64,000 nt of DNA from a virus. Positions within the stretch are counted from its first letter, which is position 1. The number at the start of each line of letters is the position of its first letter. The stretch lies in IMG/VR virus record IMGVR_UViG_3300020036_002522. The stretch is one strand, 5' to 3'. This document shows, piece after piece, positions 10,206-29,400 of this stretch. The notes below the pieces were generated by a model that saw only the letters and a list, made by a program, of their open reading frames with translations, was not told the origin of the DNA and searched no databases. Made by a program: the position numbers and the translations under genes.

Positions 10206-10219
10206 CCCGAGAAAAAATC

Positions 10220-11349: not shown

Positions 11350-11652
11350 ATGCGCTACTACTCAAAAATCGTAAAGCAGCGCGTCAAGGCCGGGCCTAAC
11401 ACACCCGGCCTTGAACTTGCCCGTCTCGCTATCCTGCGGGACATCTCAATAAAAGAGATTGCTTATCTACTAGGCGCGTCGAGAATGACGGTCTACAATT
11501 GGTTTGCTGGCAGACAGACAACCAACGCCTACCGGCAGCGCGTAACACAACTTGTCAACATATTGAAGACAGCGCCCGACAATGACGCTGCATGGAGTAA
11601 AGCATGCGAGACCTTTCACCCCCAAACACAACCGGTAACCAACCAGAAGTAA
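11350..11652 (+). CDS. helix-turn-helix DNA-binding protein (100 aa)
   Basis: IKEIAYLLGASRMTVYNWFAGRQ is a classic HTH segment. Confidence 0.65.
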   Translation: MRYYSKIVKQRVKAGPNTPGLELARLAILRDISIKEIAYLLGASRMTVYNWFAGRQTTNAYRQRVTQLVNILKTAPDNDAAWSKACETFHPQTQPVTNQK

Positions 11653-11677
11653 GTATCGCGCGTCGTCGCTCCGTCGT

Positions 11678-14551
11678 TTGATCGGGGCCAATATGAACAC
11701 CCAAGATTTTCTAACGGTTGTATTACCGACAGCCGGAAGGGGTTTCTATTGCGCCGTCGAGCTGCCGACCAAAGCGCAGACCTTTGTGAAAGATGTCGCC
11801 ACGCTGGATAACACCACGCTGCTGGCCTCAATCGGACAACGGGAAGCGTATTTTGCGTTGGCAACTTTCCAGAACGAGGGCAATCGCCGGGCGGCAAATG
11901 CGCTGGCGGTGCGCTCTCTCTTCGTTGACATCGACTGCGGACAGGGCAAGGCCTACGCCACCAAGCGCTTGGCCATCACTGCGCTACAGGACTTTCTCAC
12001 CACCACTGGACTTGTGCACCTTGGGCAGCCGTGGCTGGTTGATTCAGGTGGCGGGGTGCATGGGTACTGGCCGTTCGATGAAGATGTCTGCATTGAAGAT
12101 TGGCGCCCCGTGGCGGAGGCGTTCAAGCGCACCGCAAGCAGGCTGGGCCTCAAGATCGACATGACCGTAACCGCCGACGCCGCTCGAATACTGCGGCCAC
12201 CCGGCACCCACAACTACAAATACAACCCCCCAAGACCCGTCACCCTCAAACAGCAAGGCGCGCTGTTTGCTCTGCAAGATATTGCGGACAGACTTGACAC
12301 CGCCACCGCCGCCTCCCCCGGGGGCCCGACAGCCATCTCCCTACCCAGTCTGCGCCCCGCCGGTACACCCCCGGCGAAGATGTCCACCACCATGCGGGCA
12401 CTGGCTGGCAACAGCGTGACGTATTTCAAGAACATCGTAGTGCGCACCATGCAGGGCACCGGGTGCGGGCAGCTGCAGCACTACCTCGACAACGCACAAG
12501 ACGATGGCATGGAGCCGTTGTGGCGCGGTATGCTGTCTTTGGCTAAGGTGTGTGAAGATGCCGATAAAGCTGTTGTGCGCATAACTGATGCGCATCCTTA
12601 CCCACACAGTAGGATGCTGCAGAAACTGGGGGAGATCAAGGGGCCATACCCTTGCACCAAGATCGACTCCGAGAACCCCGGGATATGCGGGACGTGCACA
12701 CACTGGGGCAAGATCACGAACCCGTTGGCGCTGGGGCGCGAGGTGTCGGTCGACAACGCCGAGAAGGTGATCGAGATCGAACCCACGGATGCAGCGCCCA
12801 TCGGCACGCACCTGATACGCCCGGAACCCCCGCACGACTTCTCTTTCGGCACCCATGGCGGCGTGTACCGCACCGTGGAAAAGACCAACGCCAAAGGTGA
12901 TGTCACCACGGAAGAGAAGCTGATCATGCCCTATGAGTTTTTCATGGTTGATCTGCTTCAGGAGAACGAAACCTATATCTCCCGCTTTGCCGCCGTGCGC
13001 TCCAAGAGCGTCACCTACGTGGCCGTGCCCAGCGAAGTGCTGGCCAGCAAGGACTCCACGATCAAGTGCCTGTCAGCGCAAAACATCATGGCCTCGTTCG
13101 GTGCGGGCAACGACCAACATCTTTACGCCTACGTGCGAGCCAGCGTGGAAGCAGCAAGCGTCAACGACAGCGCATTGCGGGTGCCGCCCCGGTACGGTTG
13201 GCAGCCAGATCACAGCTTCGCGGTGGGGGAGCGCGTCATTCAGGAGAACCAGCAGGGGTACACCTTCCCGTCGAAGAACCTGCGCAACCTGATCAACGTG
13301 ACGCAGCAGAAGGGCGCCTTGGGGGACTGGCAGCGCTACGTGCAACTTATTCAGGACAAGCAGTTGTGGGACATGCTGGGCTTTCTGGGCGTGGGCTTCG
13401 GGTCACCACTCATGGAGTTCGCCGGTGCGGCCACGCCGGCCATGATGTTCCACGCTTGCAGCAAGGATTCCGGCCGGGGCAAGACCTTGGCATTGCAGTT
13501 GTGCGTGTCTGTGTGGGGGAACCCCTCAACGTACCCGGTCAAGCCCTCCACTTCTGAGCGCACGATGATGCAGCGGGCGGGCCTCTTGGGCAGTCTGCCA
13601 CTGGCGGTTGACGAGGTGACCGATGCGCAGCGCAAGTCAAAAGGCGAGTTCATCCCCACGTTGGTATTCGATCACTCGCAAGGTGGGCACAAGGTCAAGG
13701 GCAGCGGCGCGGCCAACGCCGAGCTCATCAACGACCTGTACTGGCGGGCGCTCGGCATCATCACATCGAACGAGCCTGCCATGGAGAAGATGCTGACGAT
13801 GCGCGACACCACGTCGTTCGGGGAGCTATACCGCATGCTGGAGTGGCAGGGTAAGGATGCCATAGCGTGGACCGACGCGGAGTTCCCCCTGAAGGACTTT
13901 CTCGAACATAACCACGGGCACGCCGGACGCATCTACGCAGAATGGCTTGTCAACAACCGGGCCGTCGCGCAGGAGATGACCGTACGCTGCATCGAGAAGG
14001 TGCGCAAGAAACTCAATTCCCCTGATGTCGAGCGCTTCTGGGTGGCCGGTGTAGGCGCCTGTCTAGCTGGGCTGATCCTTGCCGGACCCAAGTACGCGAA
14101 CATCTTCGACTTCAAGGTGCCTGCCATCTTCGACAACGCTTATGCACAGTGGGTTATGAACGCGCGCTCCCTTATGGCTGCCAACGTGCAGACCGCACAG
14201 GACTTGCTCAATTCCTACACACAAGAGTTCCATGGCAAGTTCGTCACGCTGGAACTGAAGAAGGGGCCAATGGCTGTGTTCCAAGACAACCGCAACGTGA
14301 CCCCGCAGAGCACCCGCGGCAGGGTAGCGGGACGCATCGAGTACGACATCCGCCCGGGTTGGGTCGACTACTTCATCGAGCTGACCACATTCAAGCGCTA
14401 CTGTGGTGAGCGCAACCACGGGTTCAACGCGGTGCTGACGGAGCTGCGCCAGTCAATGGTGGTGCGCGAGGGGCGCAAGGATTTGCTGGCCAAGACCGGC
14501 GGGCCGAAGATGTACGTGAAATGTCTTCTCATAAGCCACCCGATCGTTTGA
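11678..14551 (+). CDS. bifunctional primase-polymerase (AEP) / SF3-type helicase
   Basis: AEP motifs LFVDIDCG, SGGGVHGYW, RILRPPGTHNYK. P-loop SKDSGRGKT and Walker B LAVDEV. Alternative start at ATG 11693. Confidence 0.9.
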   Translation: MIGANMNTQDFLTVVLPTAGRGFYCAVELPTKAQTFVKDVATLDNTTLLASIGQREAYFALATFQNEGNRRAANALAVRSLFVDIDCGQGKAYATKRLAITALQDFLTTTGLVHLGQPWLVDSGGGVHGYWPFDEDVCIEDWRPVAEAFKRTASRLGLKIDMTVTADAARILRPPGTHNYKYNPPRPVTLKQQGALFALQDIADRLDTATAASPGGPTAISLPSLRPAGTPPAKMSTTMRALAGNSVTYFKNIVVRTMQGTGCGQLQHYLDNAQDDGMEPLWRGMLSLAKVCEDADKAVVRITDAHPYPHSRMLQKLGEIKGPYPCTKIDSENPGICGTCTHWGKITNPLALGREVSVDNAEKVIEIEPTDAAPIGTHLIRPEPPHDFSFGTHGGVYRTVEKTNAKGDVTTEEKLIMPYEFFMVDLLQENETYISRFAAVRSKSVTYVAVPSEVLASKDSTIKCLSAQNIMASFGAGNDQHLYAYVRASVEAASVNDSALRVPPRYGWQPDHSFAVGERVIQENQQGYTFPSKNLRNLINVTQQKGALGDWQRYVQLIQDKQLWDMLGFLGVGFGSPLMEFAGAATPAMMFHACSKDSGRGKTLALQLCVSVWGNPSTYPVKPSTSERTMMQRAGLLGSLPLAVDEVTDAQRKSKGEFIPTLVFDHSQGGHKVKGSGAANAELINDLYWRALGIITSNEPAMEKMLTMRDTTSFGELYRMLEWQGKDAIAWTDAEFPLKDFLEHNHGHAGRIYAEWLVNNRAVAQEMTVRCIEKVRKKLNSPDVERFWVAGVGACLAGLILAGPKYANIFDFKVPAIFDNAYAQWVMNARSLMAANVQTAQDLLNSYTQEFHGKFVTLELKKGPMAVFQDNRNVTPQSTRGRVAGRIEYDIRPGWVDYFIELTTFKRYCGERNHGFNAVLTELRQSMVVREGRKDLLAKTGGPKMYVKCLLISHPIV

Positions 14552-14742
14552 AGAAATACCCTTGGCCGCAGACGCAGCCCGGGGAAAGTTTCTTTGTGCC
14601 GGCGCTCGACACGGACAAGGCGGTGCTGGAGGGGCGGCAAGCTGCCGCGCACTACGATGTGCGCGGCTACTCCTACAAGGTGTGCGTCTACAAAGGCATA
14701 CTGGGCGTCATGTTCAAACGTCGATCGCGTCAAGCTCTTTGA
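14521..14742 (+). CDS. hypothetical protein (73 aa)
   Basis: ORF track; overlaps the end of the primase gene and converges on the giant ORF. Weak support. Confidence 0.3.
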   Translation: MSSHKPPDRLKKYPWPQTQPGESFFVPALDTDKAVLEGRQAAAHYDVRGYSYKVCVYKGILGVMFKRRSRQAL

Positions 14743-17700
14743 ACGCCTGCTCGACTGTTTCAGCAATCTCATTCCGCACCTTCTCCAACTCCCGTATACG
14801 CTGCGTCTTCTCGGTGGCAGGCATATCCGCATTACGCAGACGCTCCATGGCGGTATTGATGGCCCCCAACTTCTGCACGAATTTACCTGCCAGCGGTTGC
14901 GCACGTAAGTCTTTTATGTGGGAATCAATGAAGTCCTTGATTTCTTCCGCCGACGCCCCTCTGTTTCGCATGTTGCCAAGCGTCTGGTGTGCGACCGTCG
15001 CCTCCGATGCCCGGGCAAAAGCCATTTCGGAAGCGGCGCTGGTGGTTGGGTTCTGGAACAGCGACTTGATGAACGGCACCTGATCCAGCCGCTTCTCCGC
15101 TTGGGCTACGCCGCCCATCATTGGGTTGACCGCATCAAGCGTACCCATCACAACACTAACGATACCACCCATAACCTGATCGACAAACCATGCCAGTTTC
15201 TTGGGGGATGTCCCGGTGGCCTCGCCCAAAAGTTTGAACGCCTCCGGTGTGTTCGCATCGAACTGCTTCTCAGGAGTAAGCGAGGACAGACTGCGCGACA
15301 CGATCGGTATCGGTTTCCACGTATCCATGTTGCTGTTCAAGGACACGCCGATTGCCTGCTTCAGCCCCTGCGGGATAGGCAGGTTGCCTTGGTTTGGTAG
15401 TGCGCGCACACCGTACATGAACAGGGCTTTCAGCAACTGGTTTGCCTCAGCATTGTCCTTGAACCCCTCCACCAACGCCTGACCCATGGCGATGGCCATA
15501 CCGCCGCCTTCGGCGTATGTGTACGGCAGTTTCAGCAGCGTGTCAGTGCCCGGTAACGGGATGTGCAGGAAGCCGAACTTGTCGCTCGGTTTGAGCTTGG
15601 CGTACTCGTCGTTGTCCCCCATCATGGTGGCGTATGCCACGCCGCCGATGGCCAGCATCATCATGTTGTTGAGGTATGTTTGCCGGACTTTAAGCTCCTC
15701 CTCAAACGGCATCTTGCCTTGCAGCGCCTTGATGCTTACGTTGATAGCCTGAATGCCCGCGTTGAAGAACGGCAGCAGGCGGTTGGCGTGCTGGATAGTG
15801 GCCCATGCGCCGCGCTTGTGAAAATTCATGGACTCCATGACCCGGCGCTCGGCTTCGACTTCGGACAGCCCCCGCTTGATCGAGTCGTTGTACACCTGTA
15901 CCCGGGTAGCGGCGTCGGCCATGTGCGCGCTCTTGTCCAGCAGATTCAGGAACTGCCGCGTCTTGGAGGGGTTCGCCCCGTCGGCCAGCATGTGCGTTAG
16001 CTTTATGAAGTCGTCAAAATCTCCTGTCAATATGTTGCTCTGAACAAGCGCGCGGCGGTTCATGTCGTCGATGTCCGCGTTGCGGTTCGCCATCCCCTTA
16101 CCATACTCCTTGAACGCACGGGCAACGGCCGTCAGCGGGTTCGCCTCAAGCCCTGAAGTCGACGCAATGCTGGACGGGTCTTTGATGAGCTGGCGCAGCG
16201 TGTAAGCCGGCACCCGTGTAACACCTGCACGCAGCAAGTCGTTCAGATAGGACGACCACTTCAGGTACGCAGGCATGGTGGCGTGGTGCCCCTCGATGCT
16301 CTGTGCCAGCATATCAGTAGGAATACCTGCCAGCGCCGTGTTCTCGGTGTCGATCTCCAGAAAGCGGTCCCCTCTATCGCTGCTCCCGAGTGGCGTCTGC
16401 TTCCACTTCAGGTACTGGCGCCCTGCGGGGGGAATACCGGCTATGACGGACATCTTGTTCTTGCCGTTCGCAGCCTTGCCTTTTCCTGCCGCCTGCAGCA
16501 CGTAAGCGATGTTGCGCTTCGCCATGTTGACTAGCGCCATGTCAGTCAACAGCTTGGTGTTGTACATGATGGACTCGTTGATCGGCATGATGGCCTCGTC
16601 GCCGCCTTTCAACTTGTGCATGAACGGCGTGTTGGCAATGTCGCCGAGCCGGTGCCACTGACTGTCACCAAAAGCAATCTGCAAGATGCCCCCGTTGTTA
16701 CGGTACATAGGCACGTAGTCCTTGTGGCGTAGCATCTCGCTGGCCAGATCAGGCGTTATGGCTCCGGACTCCATGGCCCATGTAACAAGCGCTTCGTTGT
16801 ACTTGTCGTACAGGTTGTTGAAGTTGTTAAGCGCCGCCTTCAGTTCCGGGTCAGCGTTAACCTGTTGCAGAACAGCCGTCAGTTGTGCGGGGGTTGTGTT
16901 GAACGAGATTTTGTTGGCCCCCACCCGCAGCCCGCGCTTTGCCAGCCGGTACGATGTGGCCAGCTCGAATTTCGCAGCAGAGTTACCCCCGGGGATACCT
17001 TCGGCAGCCGCCAGAACTTCCATTGCGCTCGGAGCGCCACCCGCACGCTGACTGATGAGCCCTTTGCTGTCACGCACAGTCTCGGGTCCGCCGTTGGTCA
17101 TAAACTGCGATACAAGCGAGCTGCTGTACCCGGTACGCACCAGCGAATGCAGCGCCTGTTCTACCAGCTTGCCGTCCACACCCGCGCCCTTGGCCAGCTC
17201 CATGGCGTTCTTAACCGGGGCGTGCATGTCGACAACGCCAGTGTTCCACGCTTCAGATATGGAGTCCAGCACCCGCTGCATGGTTGTACGCGAGTCAGGC
17301 GGAACTACGTTTCCCACTTTGGTGATTGGCGTTCCAGCGAGGCGTCCGTAGTCAGGCGCAGCAGTACGGTACACCGCTTCACCCCCCGCGCTGTCGCCGC
17401 GCGCTTCCCCTCGTTTCACGTGTCTGCGAGCGTTGGCCACGATCTGGCGAACCTCACCATCGGTGACGCCCTTGAGCCCCAGCTTCTTCCACAGCCATTG
17501 TTTGACTGCGTAGAACACGCGGGACAGCGCGGCAGACACCCCCTCTTTACCCGGGGTGGTTTCCGACATATCGGCCAGCGTTTCTTCTACAGCAATCTCT
17601 TTTGACAAGCGGGGGTCTGCGGCCATCAGCTTGTCCGCCGCCTGCGCGACACTTGCGTTACCCTCATACAGCCGGTTCATAGTGTCGGTGTACGCGTCGC

Positions 17701-20700
17701 CCATCATGTCGCGAAGCCCGTAGTGGCCGGCTACCTCGTGTACGATAGTGAGCGCTACATCCCGCCCGTTATGCAGGTTGGCTGCGACCAAATAAACCGT
17801 CTTGCTGTCGGGGTCGAACAGACCGGGTACCTTGCCGGTCATGCCGTCCCGTGCCGCTTGGTCTTGCAGACGTTGGGGCAGTTGGGCTTCCGTGTCCACC
17901 ACCACGGTGTTCGGCGTGTTCGTCCACCCTTCCGTGATTCTGTTTGCAAGACGTGTAACTTCTGCCGCCTTCATACCCGTACCAGTAGTGGTAGACGTGC
18001 GATAGACGACGGGCGGTCCTGCAATATCCTCCCGACTGTCTTTTTCCAAGCGCTGCACGGCCGTACTGGCGGCAGGCAACGAGGTGTCTTTCTTGAGTGC
18101 TGCGTCGGCCGCTTTGACTGCCGCTATCGCATCCTTCAGCCGCTGCGCTGCAGCCGCTTTAGCAGGGGCGCCTGCCTTGGATTTCTGCACAGCATCGTTG
18201 GACAGCTTGGCCTCGGCGCGCTCCTTGATCGCTGCTTCCAAGTCGCGTGCCAGTTTAGCCCACACCATCTCGCTGCGCAGGGCGTTGCTCTCCCGCATGT
18301 CGTCGTTTGCCTGCGCCACGGCTTGTTCGGCAGTTACCTTGGGGTGAATCAGCTTCTCGGTAACCTTGTTACGCGTGCCGACCTTGGACTCTTTAGTGAC
18401 CGTTGTGGCTTCGCCAACGGAGCCGTCGGCCTGACGTTTCCCCGCCACAGCAGTGACGTCCCCGGAGATCATATCCCCTGCATTCAACGCGGTCTTGGTG
18501 GCCACGCCGCGCCGTACGGCCGGGCCCTGCGTGGCGGCAATGGTGGCAACGGACTGTCCGCGCTCTACCCGCGATAGGCGCTCGGTTATCGTAGTGATCT
18601 TCTCTTCCAGCGCTGCTTTCTTCTCCAGCAACCCCATACGAATGTTGGTGTCCTTGCCCCGCACCATGTCTAAGCGCTTCCAGTCCTCTTTGGCAGCGGC
18701 TATTTCTTCTTGGGCGTTGGCAATGGCCTTTGTTATGCGTGTGGGGATTAGTCCGTTAACCGCGTCGCGAGCCTTCTCTGCAGCATCCAGCTTGCGCTGG
18801 CCGTCCGCCATGCGGCGCTGTATATCAGCGCGTAACTGGGCAGCAGCTTCGGGGCTCATGTGGTTACGCTGTTTGAGCGTACTGCTCTTTTCCCGCAAGC
18901 CTTTGATACCGTTCTCCAGCCGGGTACGTTCTAGTTGCACGCGCGCTTGCACGTTGGTTATGGCCTTTTCCAAGTCTGCTTTTGGTAGCGACCTGTCAAA
19001 GAAAGAGGGCTTGTACATCTTTTCCAGCAGCGCTTCAGCTTCGGCCAGATTCTTCCGGAGCAGCTTTATCATAGGGTGCTGCATGTCTGTCTTGGCAGCA
19101 AGCCCTTCTATCTCGGCCTCAATGTTGGCCACGTCACCTTCGTAGCCGCCAAGTTCTTTACGCAACGCTGCGGGGTCGTCCGTGGTGTTGACACGTTCCT
19201 CAAACGCAGCACGCTCGGCGGCGGTCTCCGTTTGTTCTGGCCCGCTTACTACACCTTCTTTCAGTGCCTGTGCGGTGGTGGCTACCGCCGCGGGGTTGGC
19301 TTCCGCTACGGGGGCAGGCGAATTGAAGAACGCGTTCTGCGGTGTCGGAGCCGTACGCTCCATGGCTGGCAGTGACTTGACCAGTTCAATCTGGTCGCGC
19401 ATCATCTGCAAGGAATGGTCGTACACCCGCGCGCGGGCCGCAACAGCCTCGTCGTACACCTTGCGCGCGGTGCGGTACTCCTGCATAGCGTCAAGGTCCG
19501 TGTAGCCTTCTTCCTTGACGCGCGCAATGGCCGCGTTGACGATGCCTTCGGCAGCAGCAATCTCCTTGTCTGCGCGTTCCTCCAGCACCCGTTGGTCGTT
19601 TAACATTTCGCTCAACTTGGCGCGGGTATCTGCGTTGCGTACGTCGTCGGTGGCCGCGCCAAGCTCCCGCGCAGTCTTCATCACGTCTGTTTGTTTCTGC
19701 CGCTCGGCAGCCACCAGTTCCGCACGTTCGGCCCGGATGCTGTCGATGCCGGCCGCAATAGAATCGAGCTGGGCTTGTACTGCTTCACGCCGCACTTTAA
19801 GATTCGTCAACTGCTCCAGCGCCCACCCTTTGGAGTCGGGGTCGGGAGCCGTCTGGGACTCTTCCCCCATCTGCGCTTTTTCTGCCCGTGCAGCTTGCAA
19901 CCGCTCCCGGTACAGGTCGGCGGTCGCGTTCATCTGCTTGATGATGCGGTTCTGGTGTTCCAGCAGAGCGCTGCGGTGCGATGCAGACTGCGGGTTCTTC
20001 TGCAGATCGGCATTCTCTTTAAGACGTTCACGCAAGGGTTTCAGCGCATTGTCAAGCTCCGACATCAGCGTTGCTTCTTCAGCGGCAGCGGCACGTGCAC
20101 CCCCGACGAGTTCGGCCTTGTCCAGCGCCCGATTGGCGTCGATCATCTGTGTGTCGTAGACCGTGGGGGCCAGCAGCGCAGCAGCGTCAATGAGGGTGGC
20201 GGCTTCGCTCTCCATATCAACCGTAGAGGACGCGTGCCCGGCCCACAGGTCTGCAAGCGCGGCTTCGGTGCGCGCCAGATCGGCAAGCAGGTTCTCAAAA
20301 GACATGACGTCTTCTGTCAGCTCTGCGCGCGCATCGGCACGGGTGTCCCACGCCCCGCGAAGTGCGGCTTCCGTGCTGTTGTAGATTGCTTCTGTGTTCT
20401 TGACGTTGGCGGCGATACTGGCCTGCAGTGGCGACGGCTTCCCGCTGCGCAGCGCTTGCTCGTTCTCCATCACCAACTTGCGCGTCTCCTTAGCGCGGGC
20501 CACGTCAGTACGGGCCTTGGTCACGCGATCCAGCGAGGTCTTCTGGAGCTGCTCTATTTCGGAGGTCTTCCCCGCTACGGCTTTGCTCGCGGCCTTAGCC
20601 TTCGGGTCGGTGGCAGTGAAGTCGTCTATTTTCTTCAGCAGTGCCTGATACGCTTCCTGCTTCGCCGTCGCTTCCGCACGCGCGATGTCAGCCTTGATCG

Positions 20701-23700
20701 TTGCGGCGGTGGTGGTCTTGTCTCCGGCAGCGGCCTGCTTCTGCGCGGCCTTAACGGCTGCCTCACGCGCACGGGGCAGTGTGGTGGCTAGTGCCTCTTC
20801 CGAATACTGAATGTACGACGTCAAGCGCTGTACGGTGCCCATGATATTGTTTGCGGCCTTCACGCGCAGCAGCGTTTCCACCAGCGTAGCGACACGCGGG
20901 CCCATGAGCCTGCGTACGTCAGGAATCGTATTTTGGATAAGGGATTGCACTTGCAGCGCGGAGGTTGCCTTGGCGGCAGCACCGCCCATTCCATCAGCCA
21001 GTATGCGTACGTTGTTGGCGTTGCCGGAAGTGGAACGGTTCAGTACATCGGCAACTGCGGCTGTCGCCTTTTCAACTTCTGCCTCCAGATTACTGTCACC
21101 GATAAACTGCATGAACTCCGGCGACAGCTCGCCCGTAGCCTGCAGCCGTTTCATCTCCGCGTCGAGTTCCCCTTTTGCCCGTTCGAGACGCTTTGTGGCA
21201 GCAACTATTTTCTGCCCGATGCCCTGCACCTCGCCCTGCGCCGCGTCGAATTTGGCGTCTTCCGTGGCCTTGACGTCGGCGGCGTATTTCTCCATTGCTG
21301 CGGCATGCGCTTCGCTGGATTCTGCGGCGCGTTTGACGGGAAGTACGTCGCCGATAACAGCCTTGATTGGCGTGAGCGCTTCTTCCAGCGCGGCTTTGAG
21401 CCCTGCCAGCTCTCCGTTGGCCACGTCGACAGCACTCTGAGCCTTGGCCAGCCCTGCCTCTGCGTCGCGCACAAGGCGGTTCGCTGCACTACCTTCCCCA
21501 AACACGTTGTCCCAAAGGTTCAGTGTCTGCTTGTCAGCAGGCGACAGCTCCTGCATGGCGGCGGTAACTTCCGTATCGCTTGGCAGCGCACGTGTCATAC
21601 CAACCCCGCGCTCAACCCCGCGCTCAACGCGGGTGATACCCCTATCCATAACACCGGAACCCGGGGGTGCAACGCGCTCGACCGTTGACTGTGCTCCGTC
21701 TTCATCTACCGCGCCTAAGAAGCTACTCTGCTCCTGTACGGTGTCGGGGTTGGCGTTAACAGCGATGACTTCCCGGCCCAGTTCGGAAGGCCGCGGGGCG
21801 GGGCGTTTGAACGGCTGGTTGCGCGCAACTACCTCGCCGGTAGCAGGGTCGATCTCGTTAGCGCGGGCGACACCATCCGCTGTCTCGGCCGCAGGCACTC
21901 CGGTCTCCTTGACCAGCTCACCTTTGGGGCGCACCATCCGGGCGTTGGCGATCTGTTCCGGTGTGGCTTCTCCGGCAATATCGGTACTGGTCCCGGTACC
22001 AACGGTAGTAAGCTGCTTTTGCTGACGGTCGTACGGCGTCATGTTCACACCCAAACCGGAACTGCGCAGGCGCTCGCGCTCGGCCAGCAATGCGGTGGGG
22101 CGCAGCAGGTTGTCCAATTCCCGTTTCAAGACCGCTTGCCGGTCGAATGCCGTTTGGTTGCGTGCAACAACCTTGCCTGTAGCGGGGTCCACGGCGTTAG
22201 CGCGTATCACCCCGTCGGCGGTTTCGGTCTTTGCAGCTTGCAGCGCAGCGCGCGCTTGCGCGATAGCCTCCGGGTCCGGGCGCCATGCGTTGAGTTTGGC
22301 GTCAACCGCAGCGATACGTGCATTGACTTCGGCACGATTGAGTGCGCGTTCCTCGCCCTGTCCGTACCCTTGGTACGCGATCTTGTTGATGTTTTCCGCG
22401 AGGCGCATCAGTGCGTTCTGGGCGCCGATATTAGTTACCCCTACCATGTCTGGGTGCGTCGCGACTTTGCCTGCGTTTTTAAGCGCTGTATCGTAATCTT
22501 GCTGCGTGATGCCTTCAAATGCGGGGTTGGCCAGCGCCTTGGCGTAATTCTCCAACGCCCGCTGCGTTTCCGGTGGCATGTTGGGCCGATTCTGCAACTG
22601 CTCTATCTGTGCCAGCAACTGCGAAGCCTTACCGACACGCGGGTCTGCGCCGCCCGGCTCGATGTCACCGAACATTTGCTCCTGCTTCAGTGCCAACGTG
22701 TTGTTGGTTGTGCTGTCGGGCGTACGTTCAGCCGCTGTCGGGTTACGGTACAGGTCACGAGACTTGGCATCTTCCTCGGCTGCTGCGACGTCTGTCCCAA
22801 AAACCTGCCGCAGCAAATCGTTGGTTTGGTTGGGCGCGGCAGGCGGCGCTGCTGGAGGTACGGTGGTGTCCGTAGCAGCGGCTGCGGGCGGTGCGAAGGG
22901 GTTGGGCCCTGCCGTTTGGTTACCCGGGACAGCACCTTCGGCGGATGGAAACGCCTGCCGTGTAGCCTGCACCTGCGTGTGCAACCGGCCTATTTCGGGC
23001 AGTAGTTCCGCTGCCTTGGCCCCCCGCCCGCCATCAATGTGCGCGGCGTACTGTTTCTGCATTTTTGCTAACAGCGCTTCGGGGTCAGAAACAGTGGGCG
23101 GGGCCGCATCCTGCAGCTTCGTAATAGTGGGTGCGAGCCCTTTTAGCTGCTCCGCCAACGCATCCATCGTCTCCTGTGCTTTGGCAGCCCCCTCTATGTT
23201 GCCTTCTGCAGCAGCGGTCTTAGCAGCTTTTTTAGCTTCCACTAGCTGTATCTGCAGCGTATCGCGCTGTCCTGTCAATGCGGCCAGCCCTTGTGCCTCC
23301 AGCGCTTCTTTTTCTTCCTTGGCTTTTAGCGCATCCGCAGCGGCGGTTTCCGCAGCACGCTTCTTCAGCAACGGGGCGACCTCTTCGTACTGCTCCTGCA
23401 GTGGGCGCAAGGACGTCTCGAATGCGTTGTACTCCTTCCATGCCTGCGCGTGTTCGATCTTCTCCGCGAGCGTGGCATCTTTCTTCCGTTTGCCCGGATT
23501 CATCGCCTCAAGCTGCGCGTTGGCTTCTGCCATTTGCTTCGCGATACCTTCGGCATACGCCGGGTCAGCGAGCTTCGTCAGTTTCGACTGCGTTTCTGCC
23601 TCAAGCGCAACCTTCTGCTCCTCGGCAACACGCTTGCGCCCCAACGCCTCGCCTTGGGAAATCTCACGCCCACGGTCGGAGTAATGACCAACGGGACTCA

Positions 23701-24559
23701 TCGCCCCGCCCAAGACCGCACCACCAATAAAGTTGTCCACGTACTCAGCGCGGGCCTTTTCGTCCGTGATACTGAGCCCTGCCTGCGCGCGCTCGAACAC
23801 CTGCTGCGCGGCTTCCGTAATCCCTTCAGTCCCCATTGCGCGGCCCGTGGCCTTCAGGTAATCCGCAGCAATAGCTTTCAAGGACTGTTGGGCCATTGCC
23901 TTGGCCGTCTCTTCCGTAACCTCTTTACCGACGGAGCCGAGTAGCCGCCCTATACCGGGTAATAGTTTCATGGACAGCGTATCCAACGCTGCCTGCGGGA
24001 TGGCCGACAAAGCGGCTTTGCCAAGTCCCAAGTCTTCGTACTTGGTGCCTTCCTCCATCTGCCGTCCAAGATTGGAGCCGGTGAACTGGCCTACGCCAAT
24101 ACCGAAGCCCCCGGCAAGACCGGCAATACCTGCCGCACCCGCAAGCGCTGGAGCAGCGGCAGCGGCCCCTGTAGCAACCGCACCGGCTGCCAGAGGACCG
24201 ATCATGTACGCCGCACTGCCCCCGGCAGTCTCTTTGAACTTGTTCCAGAAATCGTCCGTCCAGCCACCCTTGGTAGGCGTGAAACCTGCTTCTGATTCGG
24301 CCTTCTTCTTGGCGTAAATGCTCTTGGCCTCCTCGTCATCGAGCAAACCCATCTTTCCGCGGGTCAGCGCGAACTGGCCTTGCAGGTCTTTGAGCCCGGC
24401 ACCGAACGCAGCGCCGAACCCGGACGTGTCGCCGGTGGGAGCGGGCGGTCCTAAGTCGGGTCTGCGCGCCAGTATCTGCTTTTTTGCTTCTTCGGGAGAC
24501 AGCTCATCGGGGATGTTATCTACCGAAGTGCCGTCTGGGAGCTGTATCGAGTAAGGCAC
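14714..24559 (-). CDS. giant virion-associated protein (3281 aa) with zincin HExxH motif; polyvalent ejected-protein candidate
   Basis: Uninterrupted 9.8-kb ORF with GTG start 5 nt after AGGGGA. N-terminal Gly/Ala-rich hydrophobic segment, more than 1500 aa of Ala/Glu/Lys/Gln-rich coiled coil, LTIVHEVAGHYGLRDMMGDAY, and a roughly 1000-aa C-terminal globular region. Last gene of the late block. Confidence 0.9.
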   Translation of the reverse strand: MPYSIQLPDGTSVDNIPDELSPEEAKKQILARRPDLGPPAPTGDTSGFGAAFGAGLKDLQGQFALTRGKMGLLDDEEAKSIYAKKKAESEAGFTPTKGGWTDDFWNKFKETAGGSAAYMIGPLAAGAVATGAAAAAPALAGAAGIAGLAGGFGIGVGQFTGSNLGRQMEEGTKYEDLGLGKAALSAIPQAALDTLSMKLLPGIGRLLGSVGKEVTEETAKAMAQQSLKAIAADYLKATGRAMGTEGITEAAQQVFERAQAGLSITDEKARAEYVDNFIGGAVLGGAMSPVGHYSDRGREISQGEALGRKRVAEEQKVALEAETQSKLTKLADPAYAEGIAKQMAEANAQLEAMNPGKRKKDATLAEKIEHAQAWKEYNAFETSLRPLQEQYEEVAPLLKKRAAETAAADALKAKEEKEALEAQGLAALTGQRDTLQIQLVEAKKAAKTAAAEGNIEGAAKAQETMDALAEQLKGLAPTITKLQDAAPPTVSDPEALLAKMQKQYAAHIDGGRGAKAAELLPEIGRLHTQVQATRQAFPSAEGAVPGNQTAGPNPFAPPAAAATDTTVPPAAPPAAPNQTNDLLRQVFGTDVAAAEEDAKSRDLYRNPTAAERTPDSTTNNTLALKQEQMFGDIEPGGADPRVGKASQLLAQIEQLQNRPNMPPETQRALENYAKALANPAFEGITQQDYDTALKNAGKVATHPDMVGVTNIGAQNALMRLAENINKIAYQGYGQGEERALNRAEVNARIAAVDAKLNAWRPDPEAIAQARAALQAAKTETADGVIRANAVDPATGKVVARNQTAFDRQAVLKRELDNLLRPTALLAERERLRSSGLGVNMTPYDRQQKQLTTVGTGTSTDIAGEATPEQIANARMVRPKGELVKETGVPAAETADGVARANEIDPATGEVVARNQPFKRPAPRPSELGREVIAVNANPDTVQEQSSFLGAVDEDGAQSTVERVAPPGSGVMDRGITRVERGVERGVGMTRALPSDTEVTAAMQELSPADKQTLNLWDNVFGEGSAANRLVRDAEAGLAKAQSAVDVANGELAGLKAALEEALTPIKAVIGDVLPVKRAAESSEAHAAAMEKYAADVKATEDAKFDAAQGEVQGIGQKIVAATKRLERAKGELDAEMKRLQATGELSPEFMQFIGDSNLEAEVEKATAAVADVLNRSTSGNANNVRILADGMGGAAAKATSALQVQSLIQNTIPDVRRLMGPRVATLVETLLRVKAANNIMGTVQRLTSYIQYSEEALATTLPRAREAAVKAAQKQAAAGDKTTTAATIKADIARAEATAKQEAYQALLKKIDDFTATDPKAKAASKAVAGKTSEIEQLQKTSLDRVTKARTDVARAKETRKLVMENEQALRSGKPSPLQASIAANVKNTEAIYNSTEAALRGAWDTRADARAELTEDVMSFENLLADLARTEAALADLWAGHASSTVDMESEAATLIDAAALLAPTVYDTQMIDANRALDKAELVGGARAAAAEEATLMSELDNALKPLRERLKENADLQKNPQSASHRSALLEHQNRIIKQMNATADLYRERLQAARAEKAQMGEESQTAPDPDSKGWALEQLTNLKVRREAVQAQLDSIAAGIDSIRAERAELVAAERQKQTDVMKTARELGAATDDVRNADTRAKLSEMLNDQRVLEERADKEIAAAEGIVNAAIARVKEEGYTDLDAMQEYRTARKVYDEAVAARARVYDHSLQMMRDQIELVKSLPAMERTAPTPQNAFFNSPAPVAEANPAAVATTAQALKEGVVSGPEQTETAAERAAFEERVNTTDDPAALRKELGGYEGDVANIEAEIEGLAAKTDMQHPMIKLLRKNLAEAEALLEKMYKPSFFDRSLPKADLEKAITNVQARVQLERTRLENGIKGLREKSSTLKQRNHMSPEAAAQLRADIQRRMADGQRKLDAAEKARDAVNGLIPTRITKAIANAQEEIAAAKEDWKRLDMVRGKDTNIRMGLLEKKAALEEKITTITERLSRVERGQSVATIAATQGPAVRRGVATKTALNAGDMISGDVTAVAGKRQADGSVGEATTVTKESKVGTRNKVTEKLIHPKVTAEQAVAQANDDMRESNALRSEMVWAKLARDLEAAIKERAEAKLSNDAVQKSKAGAPAKAAAAQRLKDAIAAVKAADAALKKDTSLPAASTAVQRLEKDSREDIAGPPVVYRTSTTTGTGMKAAEVTRLANRITEGWTNTPNTVVVDTEAQLPQRLQDQAARDGMTGKVPGLFDPDSKTVYLVAANLHNGRDVALTIVHEVAGHYGLRDMMGDAYTDTMNRLYEGNASVAQAADKLMAADPRLSKEIAVEETLADMSETTPGKEGVSAALSRVFYAVKQWLWKKLGLKGVTDGEVRQIVANARRHVKRGEARGDSAGGEAVYRTAAPDYGRLAGTPITKVGNVVPPDSRTTMQRVLDSISEAWNTGVVDMHAPVKNAMELAKGAGVDGKLVEQALHSLVRTGYSSSLVSQFMTNGGPETVRDSKGLISQRAGGAPSAMEVLAAAEGIPGGNSAAKFELATSYRLAKRGLRVGANKISFNTTPAQLTAVLQQVNADPELKAALNNFNNLYDKYNEALVTWAMESGAITPDLASEMLRHKDYVPMYRNNGGILQIAFGDSQWHRLGDIANTPFMHKLKGGDEAIMPINESIMYNTKLLTDMALVNMAKRNIAYVLQAAGKGKAANGKNKMSVIAGIPPAGRQYLKWKQTPLGSSDRGDRFLEIDTENTALAGIPTDMLAQSIEGHHATMPAYLKWSSYLNDLLRAGVTRVPAYTLRQLIKDPSSIASTSGLEANPLTAVARAFKEYGKGMANRNADIDDMNRRALVQSNILTGDFDDFIKLTHMLADGANPSKTRQFLNLLDKSAHMADAATRVQVYNDSIKRGLSEVEAERRVMESMNFHKRGAWATIQHANRLLPFFNAGIQAINVSIKALQGKMPFEEELKVRQTYLNNMMMLAIGGVAYATMMGDNDEYAKLKPSDKFGFLHIPLPGTDTLLKLPYTYAEGGGMAIAMGQALVEGFKDNAEANQLLKALFMYGVRALPNQGNLPIPQGLKQAIGVSLNSNMDTWKPIPIVSRSLSSLTPEKQFDANTPEAFKLLGEATGTSPKKLAWFVDQVMGGIVSVVMGTLDAVNPMMGGVAQAEKRLDQVPFIKSLFQNPTTSAASEMAFARASEATVAHQTLGNMRNRGASAEEIKDFIDSHIKDLRAQPLAGKFVQKLGAINTAMERLRNADMPATEKTQRIRELEKVRNEIAETVEQAFKELDAIDV

Positions 24560-24568: not shown

Positions 24569-26422
24569 CTATATTGGTTTTAGCGTATTGAAGTCTAACC
24601 GAGTTCCCGGGGCTGCGGCCCCCGCGTCCTTAAAGGATATGTCGCCATACCCGGCGTCCTTGTACAGCGTAGGCAGCAGGCTGTCCTCGGCTTTGAGTTT
24701 CTTCAGCACCTGTGCAAAGTAGGTGCTCGCGTCAGGAACTACCAGTTTCGGGTTTATCAGTGCCTGCTCTTTAAGCTGCTTCAACTGCTGCTCTGCAAGC
24801 GTAAGTGCGTTGTTGTGTAGCTGTTCAAGGTGCCCTTTCAGCCGGTTCGCTGCGGCCAATTCTTGTCGCTGCAATCCACTTTCTGTCCGGCCTTCGCGTC
24901 TATCCGCCAAGGTGTCTTCGGCAAGCCGGTTAGAAATGCGGTGCTGTTCCGCAGTAGCCTCCCTTTGCGCGGCAGCGGAGTCCAACTGCGCCCCGGCATT
25001 GAGCCCTGTTAGCACACGGCCATCCGCTTTTTCCTGCGATGCCTCGCCGGCAGCAGCACGTTTCATCCCCACTTCGACACCGAGCTTGCTGATGTCCACA
25101 TCGGCATCGAGCAGGCGCTTCGCCCACGCGGCGTCGGACTCTTTGCGTTTCTGCTGTGCTGCTTCGTAACTTAGGGTAGACCCTAACAACGCCTGCGCCC
25201 AATCACCTTTGGTGGCCACTGCGGTACCCGCAGCAAGCGCGTTGATGATGTCACGGATAGGACTACGACCGGCAACTTCCTTCTCGTGATCCGCTTTTAG
25301 GGCTTCCAGTCCGGAGCGCTGCCGCGCCTGCAGCTCGCGGGCTTCCTTGCCGTACATGCTATCGGTGTACAGATCGGACGCATCCCGCGCTTTCGTGTTG
25401 AAGGTACCGTCGCCAATCATCCCCTTAACCCGTTCCCTCAACATATCGGAGAAGGAGTCGCCCGCTTTTGCGGCCGCTGCCGTAGCGAGTCCGCCGGGTA
25501 GCGTACCCGGCGGGGCAGAGGGCGCGCCCGACTGCACCACATCCTTCGGTGCTTGTACTCTTGCTATCGCTTCGTTAACCACATCAACGCCTAGTTGATC
25601 GCGCATTTGTGCGAGGATGCCATCGCGGGCTTCGGGGTTTTGCAGCGCAAGGGCGACCAGTCGGTCTATGGAGGTTCCTGCCAAATTAAACCCCTTACCT
25701 CCGCCAATATCTGTTCCCCAAGAAGCTGCCCCGGGGCCTGCTGTCGGTGGTGTGTACTCCTTCTCTTTCGGGCTGTTGATCCCGTACCCCGGTGCGCTGA
25801 CCATCTTTTTGAAAGACTCCACAGGCGACGCGAGCGCTTGCGCTATAGGAGACAGTACCGCTTTGGGAACGACTCCTAAAAACTCCGCTACCTTGTCCAT
25901 GTCCTGCAGATATTTACTGTCCTTTGCTTTTTCCGCTTCACGAATAGCATCTTGATACGATGTGCCTGCAACAAGCCCGGGGATACTATAGTCATCTACG
26001 TAGCTGTTGTCCTCCCCGTTGAACGACACAATCCCCCCGCCGGCATACTTCGTCGGCAGATTCGTCTGCAGTTTCGTCAGCCCGCCTTCGGCGGCGCCTT
26101 GGACTTGCGCGGCAGCCTGCAACCCGCCCGGTGCCTGCGCTTGCTGTTGCTGGCTTTGGGCAGGGTGGTTCTGGGCGAACTGCTGCACAAGCTGCTGCTG
26201 CATGACCTGCTCGGCTTTCTGGCCTGCAGTCTGCGCCACGGTCGGAGGTGTCTGCCCCTGTGCCAATGCCTGTTGTTGCTGCCAGTGCTCCGCCGCTTTG
26301 TCGACAGCCATCTTGGACAACAGCGTCAGCAAGTCCGGCGTAACCCCCGTCTTGGGGTCAGGCGGCGCCACGGGTTTGCGCGCCATGAGGGATTGCGTTG
26401 GGGTAGGGGCGCTATTCATCAT
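24569..26422 (-). CDS. virion (internal/ejection?) protein, 617 aa
   Basis: ORF track; GAGGA before ATGATG. Gln/Ala-rich, placed between two other large virion genes. Confidence 0.65.
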   Translation of the reverse strand: MMNSAPTPTQSLMARKPVAPPDPKTGVTPDLLTLLSKMAVDKAAEHWQQQQALAQGQTPPTVAQTAGQKAEQVMQQQLVQQFAQNHPAQSQQQQAQAPGGLQAAAQVQGAAEGGLTKLQTNLPTKYAGGGIVSFNGEDNSYVDDYSIPGLVAGTSYQDAIREAEKAKDSKYLQDMDKVAEFLGVVPKAVLSPIAQALASPVESFKKMVSAPGYGINSPKEKEYTPPTAGPGAASWGTDIGGGKGFNLAGTSIDRLVALALQNPEARDGILAQMRDQLGVDVVNEAIARVQAPKDVVQSGAPSAPPGTLPGGLATAAAAKAGDSFSDMLRERVKGMIGDGTFNTKARDASDLYTDSMYGKEARELQARQRSGLEALKADHEKEVAGRSPIRDIINALAAGTAVATKGDWAQALLGSTLSYEAAQQKRKESDAAWAKRLLDADVDISKLGVEVGMKRAAAGEASQEKADGRVLTGLNAGAQLDSAAAQREATAEQHRISNRLAEDTLADRREGRTESGLQRQELAAANRLKGHLEQLHNNALTLAEQQLKQLKEQALINPKLVVPDASTYFAQVLKKLKAEDSLLPTLYKDAGYGDISFKDAGAAAPGTRLDFNTLKPI

Positions 26423-26434: not shown

Positions 26435-29400
26435 TTATGGCTGTACGGCATAGTTCAGAGCGGGCAGTGCGGTGAGCCCGTAGGTGGCCGCGGCCTTCGG
26501 TGCGTCGCGTGCGGCCAACCAATTAGCGTAGTCGGCGTTGAGGCCGGCTTGCGTAGTTGTCTGCTGCACATTGCCCGCATTGAGTGTTGCGTTGATGGCC
26601 GCCAACCCGTAATTCTGGTTGGCGATGGCTGCGCTGGTGCCGTTGTTCGCGCTCGACACACTGGCCTGCGTCTGGTTGCCAGCATTGGCGATGCTTGCCG
26701 CGTTGGCGGCGCCTGCCGTGAACTGGCTTGCCTGATTGGTAGCACCGGTGTTCGCCAGATTGACTTGCGTGCCCAACTGCGCGTTGTTGTTGTTGGTCGC
26801 GTTCTGGTAGCCCGCATTTGCAATGGCCGCGTTGTTTTGGAATCCAGCATTCGCCAACGTGTTCTGGTTGACGGAACCTGCATTGAACTGCGTTGCGTTG
26901 TTGATCGCGCCCGCATTGCTGATGTTGGCCTGCTGTTGGAACCCGGCGTTGGTGGCATTGACCGTATTGTTGGCGTTGGCCACGAACTGGCCTGCTTGGT
27001 TCTGGAACCCGGCGTTGGCGATACCGACCTGATTGGCCGCGTTGGCATTGGCGAGCCCTGCCGTATTGTTGGCATTGGCCCCGAACTGGCTGGCGGCAGA
27101 CTGCAGCCCGGCGTTGGCGATACCTGCTTGGTTGCTGGCGTTGGCCCCGAACTTCGCCGCTTCGTTTTGCGCTGCCTGATTGGCCAAGCTGAACTGGTTT
27201 TGCTGCCCCGAGTTGAACATGCTAACCTGATTGGACTGCTGTGCGTTCTGCAGATTTGCCGTATTGGCGGCGTTGGCCGTGAACTGACCGGCCTGATTCT
27301 GGAACCCGGCGTTAGTCAGATTGGTTTGGCTGGCCAGCTGTGCGTTCTGCATGTTGCCCGCGTTGTCCATCTGCCCCTGCGCCAGCCCGTATTGCCCTTG
27401 CAGGTTCTGGTTTGCCAAGGACTGCTGCAGTCCGACTTGCGTACCGAGCCCCTGCGTTTGCAGATTTGCTCCAAGGTTGGCAGTTCCTGTTTGAATCCCT
27501 GCCTGCTGATTGGCTACCTGTGCACCGACCCCCCGCGCCTGATCGGCGTTGTACTGTGCCTGTGCGTTGGTGTAAGCCGACTGTAAGCCTGCGGCCTGAA
27601 TGTCACCCTTCTGTGCGGCCAGATTCTTCGCGGCTTCTGCATCCATGACAGCCGTGCGGGAACCGCCGAACGCGCCTTGTTTCATCTGATTGCTCTGGCG
27701 CTGTGTCGTGGCCACGTCGGCTTGGCGCTGCGCATCGCGCTGCTGATTCTCCACAACCTGCTGCATGTAAGGCGTCATGTACGCCGTGGAGTTCCCATTG
27801 TCGATGAAGCGATCGGTGTTGACCTTCTCTGGCCCCGCCATCTGGTACGAATTAAGGTTCGCTTGATAGTTGCTGGTGGGTGCGGCGCCCAGCGTCGTCT
27901 TTTCCACTGTCGGTGCAGCACCGGCCAGCGTAGCGTTATAGCCCTGCGAAGTAGCGTCGCGTGCAGTAGCGCGTTCTGCTGCGCCCAACAGGTTGGCGGT
28001 GTAGCCCTGCGATCCGGCCAGCGAAGACTGGTACCCCTGCGTCGGCGCTACGTTGGTGGCGCTGGCTGTGTTGACGTTGTACCCCTGCGCAGCAGCCTGC
28101 TGTGCGGGCGTGGCTTGCGTGGCAATGTACTGGGCGGCGGGCCCGGCGTTGATGGCCTGCGCTTGTGCAGCGTCGGCTTGCTGTGCGGTGCTCTGTGCCG
28201 CGGTGTATCCTTGGGAAGTGGCCGTACCCGCTGCCGCGCCACCCCCGCCAACGGTACCGGAAGCACCCAGATTACCGTACGCGTCGAATGCCTTTTGCTG
28301 TAACGCAGATGTACCCGCTGTGAGCTGCCCACCGTATGGCTGCCAGAGTGCCGGATTGTTGGCCACGGCCGTGATATTGGATGCGGCACCGGTAGCGAGG
28401 TCTCCACCGGTGGCGAAGTGTTGCACCGCCCCGCCCTTGGCGTAGTTGGCGGCTTTCGCAAGTCCACCAGCTTTCGCAGTGAACGTCTCGGGATTGATCT
28501 GCTTACCCTGCTTTTTGGTACCGGTGCGCGCGGTGCGAATGTCGTCCATCATCTTGTACAAGTGCTGCGCGCCTGCGTCAGAGTTGCCATTACCAAGGTG
28601 GGACACCACGTCGGCCGGCACGACGAACTCGCCGTGCGCCATTGCCGCAGGCTGCTTGCCATCGATCACCGCCGGGATTTGGTCGGCCATGCCATCAGTT
28701 GCACCTTGCAGGTAACGAGCAGGTAGGGGTTGCTGTGGTGCCATGGGGGCTCCTTGCTGTGGTGCCATACCGCCGGCGGCAGCATTCCACGTGTTCATAT
28801 AGTCTTCGTCAGTCAACGGGTTGCGATACACCGGCACCGTGTAGGGGGCGGTCAGCGACTGTGCGGCCAGATTGGACTTGTAGGTGTCCGTGTTTTTGGC
28901 GTTGAGCGCACCTAGTCCAGCCACACGCTTCGCGTCTTTCGCTTGGGCGGCGGATAAAGCAGCGGTGTCTCCGCTGTTGACGAAGGAGTGGGGTGTGAAC
29001 CAACTGACCCCGCCCGATCCCGGGACGTGTCCGGCAGGCGTAGCAATTGGCGTATGCCCGACCATAGTGCGGTCAGGAACCTGTACGTTGTACGTGCCAT
29101 TTTTGACCTCCGGGCCTTCGGACAGTTTCTTGATGACAGCAGCAACGGTCAACCCGTCTTTCAAGATGTCTGCGATCTTGAATGAGCCGTCGGCGTTGAC
29201 GTACTGTTTCGTCAACGCTGCTTTTGTGGAGTCCCACAGACTGGGGGAGCCGACCGCTTCCTTGCCCAAATCCATGCCCCATCCTGCGGAGCCGGGGCCA
29301 GCGGTGGGGGCGGACCAAGCGCCTGCGCCTGCCGCAGTCGCTTCCGTGCCTATCCCACTCAGTGCCGCCGCGTCGGCGGTGTTCATGGCTGCCCACGCGT

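Follow-up and report, generated by a model that had tools for sequence, protein, structure and literature searches.

A 3281-residue phage protein of the LPD38 family, probably packaged and ejected, with a zincin-like domain detectably related to C1 of the N4 virion RNA polymerase

We analyzed a 64,000-nucleotide (nt) stretch of viral DNA (IMG/VR record IMGVR_UViG_3300020036_002522, hereafter the window) with a focus on a giant open reading frame (ORF) that occupies positions 14714..24559 on the minus strand. This ORF codes for 3281 amino acids (aa), begins with GTG, has its stop codon at 14714-16 and takes up 15.4% of the window; the coordinates, size and roughly 15 percent share given by a first-pass annotation of this DNA are borne out by the ORF listing and the translation. 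The GTG lies 9 nt past the stop of an upstream 617-aa ORF. The start is well supported since it is preceded by AGGGGA and since the resulting N-terminus, (M)PYSIQLPDG, agrees with the N-termini of the environmental orthologues P0045 and P0048. The window is a phage genome whose closest terminases, at 38-44% identity, are those of Pelagibacter phages HTVC027P and HTVC023P, phage DSL-LC04 and Planktothrix phage Pag-Yong1. Its minus-strand operon runs from ~54.0 kb down to 14.7 kb and codes for the terminase large subunit, portal and major head protein, then for tail proteins, endolysin and spanin, and then for a 713-aa virion protein, which is followed by a 1210-aa ORF, the 617-aa ORF and, as the last gene of this structural operon, the giant gene. 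The plus-strand arm opposite the giant gene codes for a DNA polymerase, an exonuclease, a helicase and a 957-aa primase-helicase, and the giant gene is convergent with the gene for the latter. The ORF annotation thus agrees with the earlier description of a last late gene that converges on the replication genes. As developed below, the product, a giant of the LPD38 ‘phage-type polyvalent’ family, is probably an internal virion protein that is packaged in the capsid and ejected, and that follows the plan of the N4 virion RNA polymerase (vRNAP, gp50) without its polymerase.

The family assignment comes from the C-terminal end of the protein. A mostly helical module at aa 2540-3281 (14717..16942, minus strand; hereafter the C-module) is delimited by BLASTP, tblastn and AlphaFold2, and contains Pfam LPD38 (PF18857) at aa 2984-3164 (15068..15610, minus) with E=6e-12 and 46.5 bits against a cut-off of 27. 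LPD38 is found in 11 of the 12 full-length proteins that we compared. The top-conserved motif of the module, D.ATR..Y....G.SE.EA....E.MNF.KRG......PFFNA.IQ, is located at aa 2869-2950 (15710..15955, minus). What had been described as a globular C-terminal region of roughly 1000 aa is actually a zincin-like domain (aa 2185-2405) plus this helical module of ~750 aa with LPD38, and in relatives these two parts are separated by inserts of variable length. When the last 1100 aa are used in BLASTP and tblastn searches they match the C-termini of giant proteins from Aeromonas phage phiARM81mr, Vibrio phage 1.232.O and other Vibrio phages, and they also match PTXU04, Bacillus phages Page and Pony, and Pag-Yong1. 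The PTXU04 match has E=2e-7 by tblastn, and by predicted fold E=3e-31 with a TM-score of 0.6. An AlphaFold2 model of aa 2174-3281, which covers the zincin-like domain and the C-module at a predicted local distance difference test score (pLDDT) of 71, matches 77 polyvalent-protein models in BFVD at E<=1e-3 (best E=1e-62 with TM-score 0.71; top TM-score 0.72). Among these matches the C-module is fused to RelA/SpoT, lysozyme-like or methylase regions. We consider the C-module a candidate for an encapsidation or portal-docking module.

The zincin-like (metallopeptidase, MPTase) domain at aa 2185-2405 (17345..18007, minus), which is supported by AlphaFold2 and hhalign, is of the HExxxH type. The peptide VYLVAANLH...HEVAGHYGLRDMMGDAY is located in the giant protein and contains the HEVAGH motif at aa 2274-2279 (17723..17740, minus), in which H2274 and H2279 are predicted metal ligands and E2275 is the predicted general base. 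A single HEVAGH motif of the HExxH type had been reported for this protein. The motif is present and is the only one, with the sole HE dipeptide in 3281 aa, but four residues separate its histidines, which makes it HExxxH, and a search with HE..H over the giant protein gave no match. The predicted third metal ligand is provided by E2325-E2326 (17582..17587, minus) in the sequence AVEE(T/V)LA on a downstream helix. Across 27 homologues there is no variation at H2274, E2275, H2279, G2281, D2309, E2325 or E2326, and G2278 is almost invariant. When aa 2185-2410 are modelled with AlphaFold2 (pLDDT 80), a first helix is followed by three strands, then by a long helix with HEVAGH and by a later helix, spanning residues 136-149 of the domain model, which carries E2325/E2326; these residues align with the invariant Glu of the A.NEFMAW motif of N4-like vRNAPs. 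The predicted topology fits the zincin core described by Iyer et al., 2017, who also noted a subset of polyvalent-protein metallopeptidases with HEXXXH and proposed a helix bend for this variant. The near-invariant Gly before the second His fits such a bend.

We compared this domain with the C1 domain of N4 gp50 and its relatives using hhalign. The HExxGH cassette of the window aligns with the N4-like C1 domain over 195 columns (85%, P=6.2e-6), and with the HExxH cassette found in other family members at 87% and P=3.8e-6. Both alignments pair HEVAGH with HELVH and AVEE.LA with A.NEFMAW. The HExxH cassette in turn aligns with the C-terminal domains of N4-like vRNAPs at 97.6% and P=3.7e-12, with P=0.31 for its reversed control, and all reversed controls for the C1 comparisons gave P>=9e-4. 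Note that the informative comparisons used a 10-sequence N4-like alignment together with domain-only query alignments, and that P was only 0.015 against the single N4 sequence. A hidden Markov model of ten N4-like C-terminal domains also matches P0012, a metagenomic LPD38 protein, at E=6e-13, and one orthologue matches the PHROG family ‘virion RNA polymerase’ at E=1e-12. On this profile evidence the HExxxH domain of the giant protein is a detectable homologue of the N4 vRNAP C1 domain. The parallel with N4 vRNAP that had been drawn earlier thus stands at the C-terminus but, as shown below, not for the polymerase.

The relationship between the two types of cassette is also evident from their distribution. 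All 12 full-length proteins have exactly one zincin motif, which is in the same slot in each, with three of the HExxGHxG type and nine of the canonical HExxH type. Moreover, the metagenomic LPD38 proteins P0007 and P0012 are 90% identical over their first 850 aa and 97% identical over their last 861 aa but differ in a cassette of ~230 aa, which is of the HExxGH type in P0007 and of the N4-C1 type, with HELIH, in P0012. Judged from these two sequences, the difference is a clean recombinational swap of metallopeptidase-like domains, and since the flanks are near identical while the cassettes differ, the two cassette types are interchangeable.

The position of the giant gene is likewise kept among relatives. 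Four related metagenomic contigs again have a giant LPD38 homologue (1635, 1838 or 1920 aa) as the last structural gene, convergent with genes for a DUF927 primase-helicase, SNF2 helicase, PD-(D/E)XK nuclease and PolA. The position is kept in contigs L004, L006 and L017 and in the cultured phage Pag-Yong1, where a 2772-aa ‘large polyvalent protein’ closes the operon and is convergent with opposite-strand genes. Other homologues include p69 of phiARM81mr (3190 aa), annotated as a virion structural protein, gene 28 of Vibrio phage 1.232.O (3292 aa) and a protein of Achromobacter phage CF418P1 annotated as ‘putative portal’. The earlier proposal of a large polyvalent-type phage protein with a zincin-like module is therefore upheld by an LPD38 score above the cut-off, by the 77 BFVD models, by the invariant zincin residues and by the conserved gene position. 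As for a role in delivery, mass spectrometry shows that the LPD38 protein gp47 of phage phi24B (2811 aa) is abundant in virions; this protein is missing from the cryo-electron microscopy model and has been proposed to be an ejection protein, and PTXU04_00025, which has LPD38 as its sole signature, is required for efficient infection. The first-pass suggestion of an ejected effector gains support from the abundance of the phi24B giant in virions, and the window protein is probably a virion component as well. Note that phi24B did not show up in the tblastn search with the C-terminal 1100 aa of the giant protein.

These same observations bear on two other explanations. One is that the protein is a structural part of the particle that is kept out of the cell, such as an extended tail needle, a fibre, a ruler akin to a tape measure or an internal core that the capsid retains. 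The long helical region, the location of the gene just after the tail and lysis genes, and the annotations of the phiARM81mr homologue as ‘putative virion structural protein’ and of the CF418P1 homologue as ‘putative portal’ would all be in line with this. However, the C1-type domain is homologous to a domain of a known ejected protein, and the phi24B LPD38 protein is abundant and yet forms no part of the visible tail or capsid shell. A role as a ruler is also ill-suited to homologues whose lengths range between 1305 and 3292 aa in phages that share one gene layout, and the conserved hydrophobic N-terminal module described below points to interaction with a membrane. We therefore regard a structural role as unlikely. 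The second explanation, which we also hold to be improbable, is that the protein acts late in the producing cell and not in the virion, either as an assembly scaffold or chaperone or as an anti-defence or host-takeover factor, with the zincin-like domain as an active protease. The invariance of the catalytic-type residues would agree with this, as would the RelA/SpoT, methylase, ADP-ribosyltransferase (ART) and lysozyme domains, acting on host targets, that are carried by polyvalent-family relatives. Nevertheless, the gene is within the virion module in every relative examined, the phi24B homologue is in virions, and Iyer et al., 2017, regard polyvalent proteins as factors that are delivered during invasion and list LPD38 among the domains that are restricted to the phage-type polyvalent proteins.

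BLASTP against the gathered homologues divides the giant protein into conserved blocks at aa 1-305, aa 2185-2405 and aa 2540-3278. All three are present in P0022, a homologue of 1838 aa in which a spacer of only ~420 aa lies between the first two. The N-terminal block (23645..24559, minus; hereafter the N-module) has 29 homologues at 38-55% identity, mostly ORFs truncated by contig ends. It has the motifs PDG..IPD..SPEEA, GGS.PYM.AP, QFTGSN..RQ, IPQAALD and TEAAQQV.ER.QAGL and the invariant residues N163, R166, Q167, Q189, E249, Q252, Q253, E256 and R257. The Gly/Ala-rich hydrophobic stretch that had been noted near the N-terminus is found at aa 117-160 (24080..24211, minus), where hydropathy confirms it with Kyte-Doolittle values of 1.5-1.7 in 19-residue windows. 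Besides one window in the C-module these are the only strongly hydrophobic windows of the protein, and the stretch keeps its position in homologues. By analogy only, it can be likened to the helices at aa 224-278 with which the gp50 N-terminal domain spans the membrane (PMC13434306), which makes it a candidate for a membrane-inserting helical hairpin. The N-module is followed by a region at aa 306-950 (21710..23644, minus) that is rich in Ala, Glu, Lys, Gln and Pro. Among the full-length orthologues this region has low alignment occupancy and mostly 15-30% identity, with 38% at aa 701-750, and it is likely a flexible or extended linker. A different arrangement was observed in contig L016 (positions 10001-15846; JGI contig Ga0634391_04814), where the N-module is a separate 452-aa gene that is followed by a 1491-aa gene with matches to H-NS and DUF6884 and a faint match to an acetyltransferase. 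This arrangement indicates that the giant protein can be split and that its centre can hold real domains.

The centre of the protein is the part for which the earlier description needs most revision. It had been described as more than 1500 aa of Ala/Glu/Lys/Gln-rich, coiled-coil-like spacer, and while this composition is confirmed, a featureless spacer is not what we observe. The centre is unmatched among the 38 homologues first gathered. However, when aa 560-1759 were used to query 1.84 billion representative proteins exhaustively with HMMER, eleven proteins of 2267-3277 aa were recovered, with 28-75% identity across nearly the entire query. When the 12 sequences are aligned and scored in 50-aa windows, aa ~950-1800 and 2000-2150 are at 30-46% identity, which is on par with the C-terminal module, whereas aa 306-950 and 1800-2000 are poorly conserved. 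We therefore define a conserved central helical region at aa 951-2150 (18110..21709, minus) on the basis of the eleven orthologues. Its motifs include LSPAD..T.DLWD.VFG, MGPRVA.LV.T.LRLR, RTN..RAKETR..FENE.ALR.GK..PL and GTRN..TE, and its invariant columns are chiefly Ala, Leu, Pro, Gly, Arg, Glu and Gln. Pfam finds nothing in the centre of the 12 full-length proteins, in which LPD38 is the sole family, and a profile of the 12 proteins has only weak coiled-coil matches among all PDB sequences (E>0.02; myosin rod, designed helical bundles, the seryl-tRNA synthetase arm and lamin). A mere coiled-coil spacer was rejected as a description of the centre, since aa ~950-2150 are conserved across the eleven orthologues as the C-terminus is. 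This clade of proteins of ~3000-3300 aa thus keeps a helical centre of ~1200 aa without a known relative, which constitutes a defined structural target.

The similarities to gp50 raise the question of whether the centre harbours a catalytic domain, such that the giant protein would be an N4-type or other virion-delivered polymerase that transcribes the early genes from hairpin promoters. This had been put forward as an alternative in the first-pass annotation. Several features are compatible with it: the size, the gene position and the layout of N-module, centre and C-terminal part parallel those of gp50, the C1-type domain is homologous, and the conserved centre at aa ~950-2150 sits in the slot of the gp50 polymerase (aa 1007-2101). 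In addition, the 24 ORFs that were scanned apart from the giant yielded no RNA polymerase family, and the remaining unscanned ORFs of >=150 aa reach at most 350 aa, which is too short for a single-subunit RNA polymerase. However, no polymerase signal is obtained from the protein itself. Specifically, Pfam and PHROGs find no polymerase family in the giant protein or its 11 orthologues, phmmer with gp50 finds nothing in the giant, and hhalign of the centre profile with gp50 aa 1-2100 gives P=0.55. The 12-protein profile also retrieves no polymerase from all PDB sequences, which include full-length N4 vRNAP and T7 RNA polymerase. Before aa 2134 the centre has no invariant or near-invariant (>=90%) Lys. 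As had been noted by eye, T7-like motifs and DxDxD are missing: the centre lacks YG and DxxGR, DxDxD does not occur in the protein, and GDFDDF, which had been named as the nearest motif, is at aa 2846-2851 inside the C-module.

The hairpin-capable palindromes that had been noted in the early arm are real, with nine perfect copies of GCAGACA-NNN-TGTCTGC at 54591-54607, 54958-54974, 55122-55138, 55687-55703, 56583-56599, 58179-58195, 59397-59413, 60926-60942 and 62721-62737. They have a 7-bp stem and a 3-nt loop, a search with a 4-nt spacer found none, and most are extended to T...A, which gives 8-bp arms. All nine are in the plus-strand early arm, with none in the late operon or the replication arm. 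A ribosome-binding site and start codon follow 3-10 nt after those at 54958, 55687 and 58179, and at least two of the nine fall within the longest ORFs listed for this arm. Their confinement to the early arm would suit hairpin promoters for a virion-delivered polymerase. However, N4 early promoters form a hairpin with a 3-nt loop in which a G at -11 is required, and the loop triplets of the palindromes (AAA, ATA, TAA or TTT) consist of A and T only, with none of the nine having the loop G. The palindromes also occur in both orientations, which is better suited to a binding site for a dimeric protein. They are likeliest an operator for a dimeric regulator, and could also form hairpins. Overall, we consider it highly unlikely that the giant protein is a virion-delivered polymerase of this kind. 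Since no RNA polymerase family was found in the 24 scanned ORFs, the phage is expected to rely on the RNA polymerase of its host at all stages, unless the giant hides one. It would be nearly as surprising if the centre proved to be a new virion-delivered machine, be it a polymerase, a DNA-handling enzyme or an anti-defence enzyme, that might act at the nine early-arm palindromes. A likelier reading than this new machine, which we nonetheless put forward only tentatively, is that the LPD38 giants and the Schitoviridae vRNAPs share an ancestral ejection chassis, made up of N-module, C1 and C2, and differ in their central cargoes.

We thus favour a giant internal virion protein of the LPD38 family that is built on the gp50 plan, and for which the following sequence of events can be envisaged. 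The protein would be synthesized late, and a few copies would enter the procapsid through its C-terminal part, composed of the zincin-like domain and the LPD38 helical module. At infection the giant, for the most part unfolded, would pass down the portal and tail channel, accompanied by the proteins that the two upstream genes encode. The N-module would then insert into the host envelope with its Gly/Ala-rich hydrophobic hairpin, and the helical centre of ~1900 aa may form or line a trans-envelope conduit for DNA. The zincin-like domain, with H2274, H2279 and E2325 or E2326 as ligands and E2275 as base, may cut the giant or a partner, either at maturation or after delivery. Alternatively, it may serve only in structural docking, as in N4 gp50, which is unprocessed. 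For the giant protein, we infer rather than show that it is packaged, ejected and inserted into a membrane, that it forms a conduit and that it acts as a protease.

Several observations weigh against this interpretation or parts of it. The support for packaging and ejection of the giant protein is indirect and comes from phi24B gp47, which is in virions, and from N4 gp50, whose C-terminal domain is needed for encapsidation. The motif is not a canonical HExxH, which renders metal binding and catalysis uncertain, and zinc binding and peptidase activity of the HEVAGH domain are predictions only. Foldseek against the PDB (to 8 April 2026; full-length N4 vRNAP assumed not included) gave nothing significant with either the 226-aa model of the zincin-like domain or the 1108-aa model. 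The zincins that appeared were at noise level (collagenase T, E=0.38; anthrax lethal factor, E=0.78), and no N4 vRNAP chain is among the PDB matches listed. In searches of all PDB sequences, phmmer with the C-terminal 1228 aa and the profiles A3 and A6 returned only low-complexity and coiled-coil noise. By hhalign, nothing in the N-module resembles the N-terminal domain of gp50, and Pfam LPD38 is found in none of ten N4-like vRNAP C-terminal domains. When the C-module is compared with N4-like C2, only aa 2869-2950 (82 columns, gp50 aa 3358-3442) beats the reversed-sequence controls, with P from 8e-4 to 1.5e-2; a homology between the C-module and C2 that rests on 82 columns with P of ~1e-3 to 1e-2 is not established. 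In addition, the idea of a conduit does not account for how strongly the centre is conserved, which points to a specific function. Finally, Pfam searches for a second effector domain with the giant protein, six segments of it and 11 orthologues gave only LPD38, and since no such domain was found the protein does not, strictly speaking, deserve the label ‘polyvalent’.

The two ORFs upstream of the giant gene, of 617 aa (24569-26422, minus) and 1210 aa (26435-30067, minus), are by their position candidates for partner internal or ejection proteins. No Pfam or PHROG family was found for either of them. Two segments of the 1210-aa ORF (aa 451-530 and 759-858) are matched by individual, shorter genes that occupy the equivalent position in the related contigs L006 and L016, which makes the ORF look like a fusion of internal-protein genes. 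The 617-aa ORF matches none of the relatives, and the corresponding block of one relative includes a protein with an SLT (lytic transglycosylase) domain. As for the giant gene as a whole, megablast against 50,697 phage records gave no match, the exact protein sequence is absent from a collection of 15 billion proteins, and the whole protein has no family in PHROGs. Self-BLAST and Tandem Repeats Finder revealed no internal repeats of note in the giant protein; a short duplicated peptide, ADGV.RAN..DPATG.VVARNQ, was spotted by eye.

Elsewhere in the window, two ORFs may be mobile endonuclease genes. A 303-aa ORF (43846-44757, minus) that adjoins the major head gene has weak matches to homing-endonuclease PHROGs, and a 419-aa ORF in the early arm (62154-63413, plus) matches an HNH-endonuclease PHROG family at E=2e-69. 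The early arm also has arrays of the hexanucleotide GCAACG at 57214-57426 (37 copies) and 57805-57932 (21 copies), for which one reading frame would give Gly-Asn/Asp/Tyr repeats and another Arg/Gln/Leu repeats.

Giant LPD38 proteins are widespread in podophages, at least one of them is needed for efficient infection, and they pose a packing puzzle given that a protein of ~350 kDa has to pass a channel ~3 nm wide. Since the basic classification of the window protein is unchanged, we consider the finding solid and unsurprising; the details that are new concern the swap of cassettes, the connection drawn explicitly to N4 C1 and the conservation of the centre. Among characterized members of the family, phi24B gp47 (2811 aa) and PTXU04 00025 (2198 aa) are like the giant in having LPD38 in a large helical C-terminal module and in being encoded within the virion module. 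However, phi24B gp47 has LPD1, LPD5 and a metallopeptidase of the MuF-C type, none of which is found in the giant protein by Pfam. The broader comparison class consists of the phage-type polyvalent proteins of Iyer et al., 2017, such as the MinM2/Pag-Yong1 RelA/SpoT protein, 1.232.O gene 28 with its methylase, and P1 DarB. The giant shares with these the zincin-like MPTase as a hub domain, and its last 1100 aa are common to such proteins. In contrast, the methylase, helicase, ART, RelA/SpoT and lysozyme effectors of this class are not detected in the giant or its 11 orthologues, where the conserved helical region of ~1200 aa replaces the usual string of effector domains.

With regard to the neighbouring genes, T7 gp14-gp15-gp16 and N4 gp51-gp52 are, like the candidate block in the window, large internal proteins that are encoded together and late, and they have been proposed to form a trans-envelope channel. 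T7 gp16 has an SLT domain, as does the block of the one relative, and no sequence relationship was found between these proteins and the upstream ORFs. The closest counterpart in overall plan is N4 gp50 (3500 aa, Schitoviridae), which is likewise a giant encoded by the last late gene, convergent with the replication genes. Both proteins have Gly/Ala-rich hydrophobic helices near the N-terminus, long flexible linkers and, toward the C-terminus, a zincin-like domain (C1 of gp50, aa 2124-2375) that is followed by a large helical domain. They differ in that gp50 has a T7-like polymerase domain and HExxH, whereas the giant has HExxxH and no polymerase was found in it. In gp50 the C-terminal domain, composed of C1 and C2 (the latter of ~110 kDa), is needed for encapsidation and the N-terminal domain is implicated in injection, and the protein is packaged unprocessed and thought to cross the tail as beads on a string. 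Given that the HExxxH domain is homologous to, and interchangeable with, gp50 C1, the structures and genetics available for N4 should be transferable to the larger and more diverse LPD38 family. From this perspective, the N4 polymerase can be viewed as one cargo carried by a chassis of wider use.

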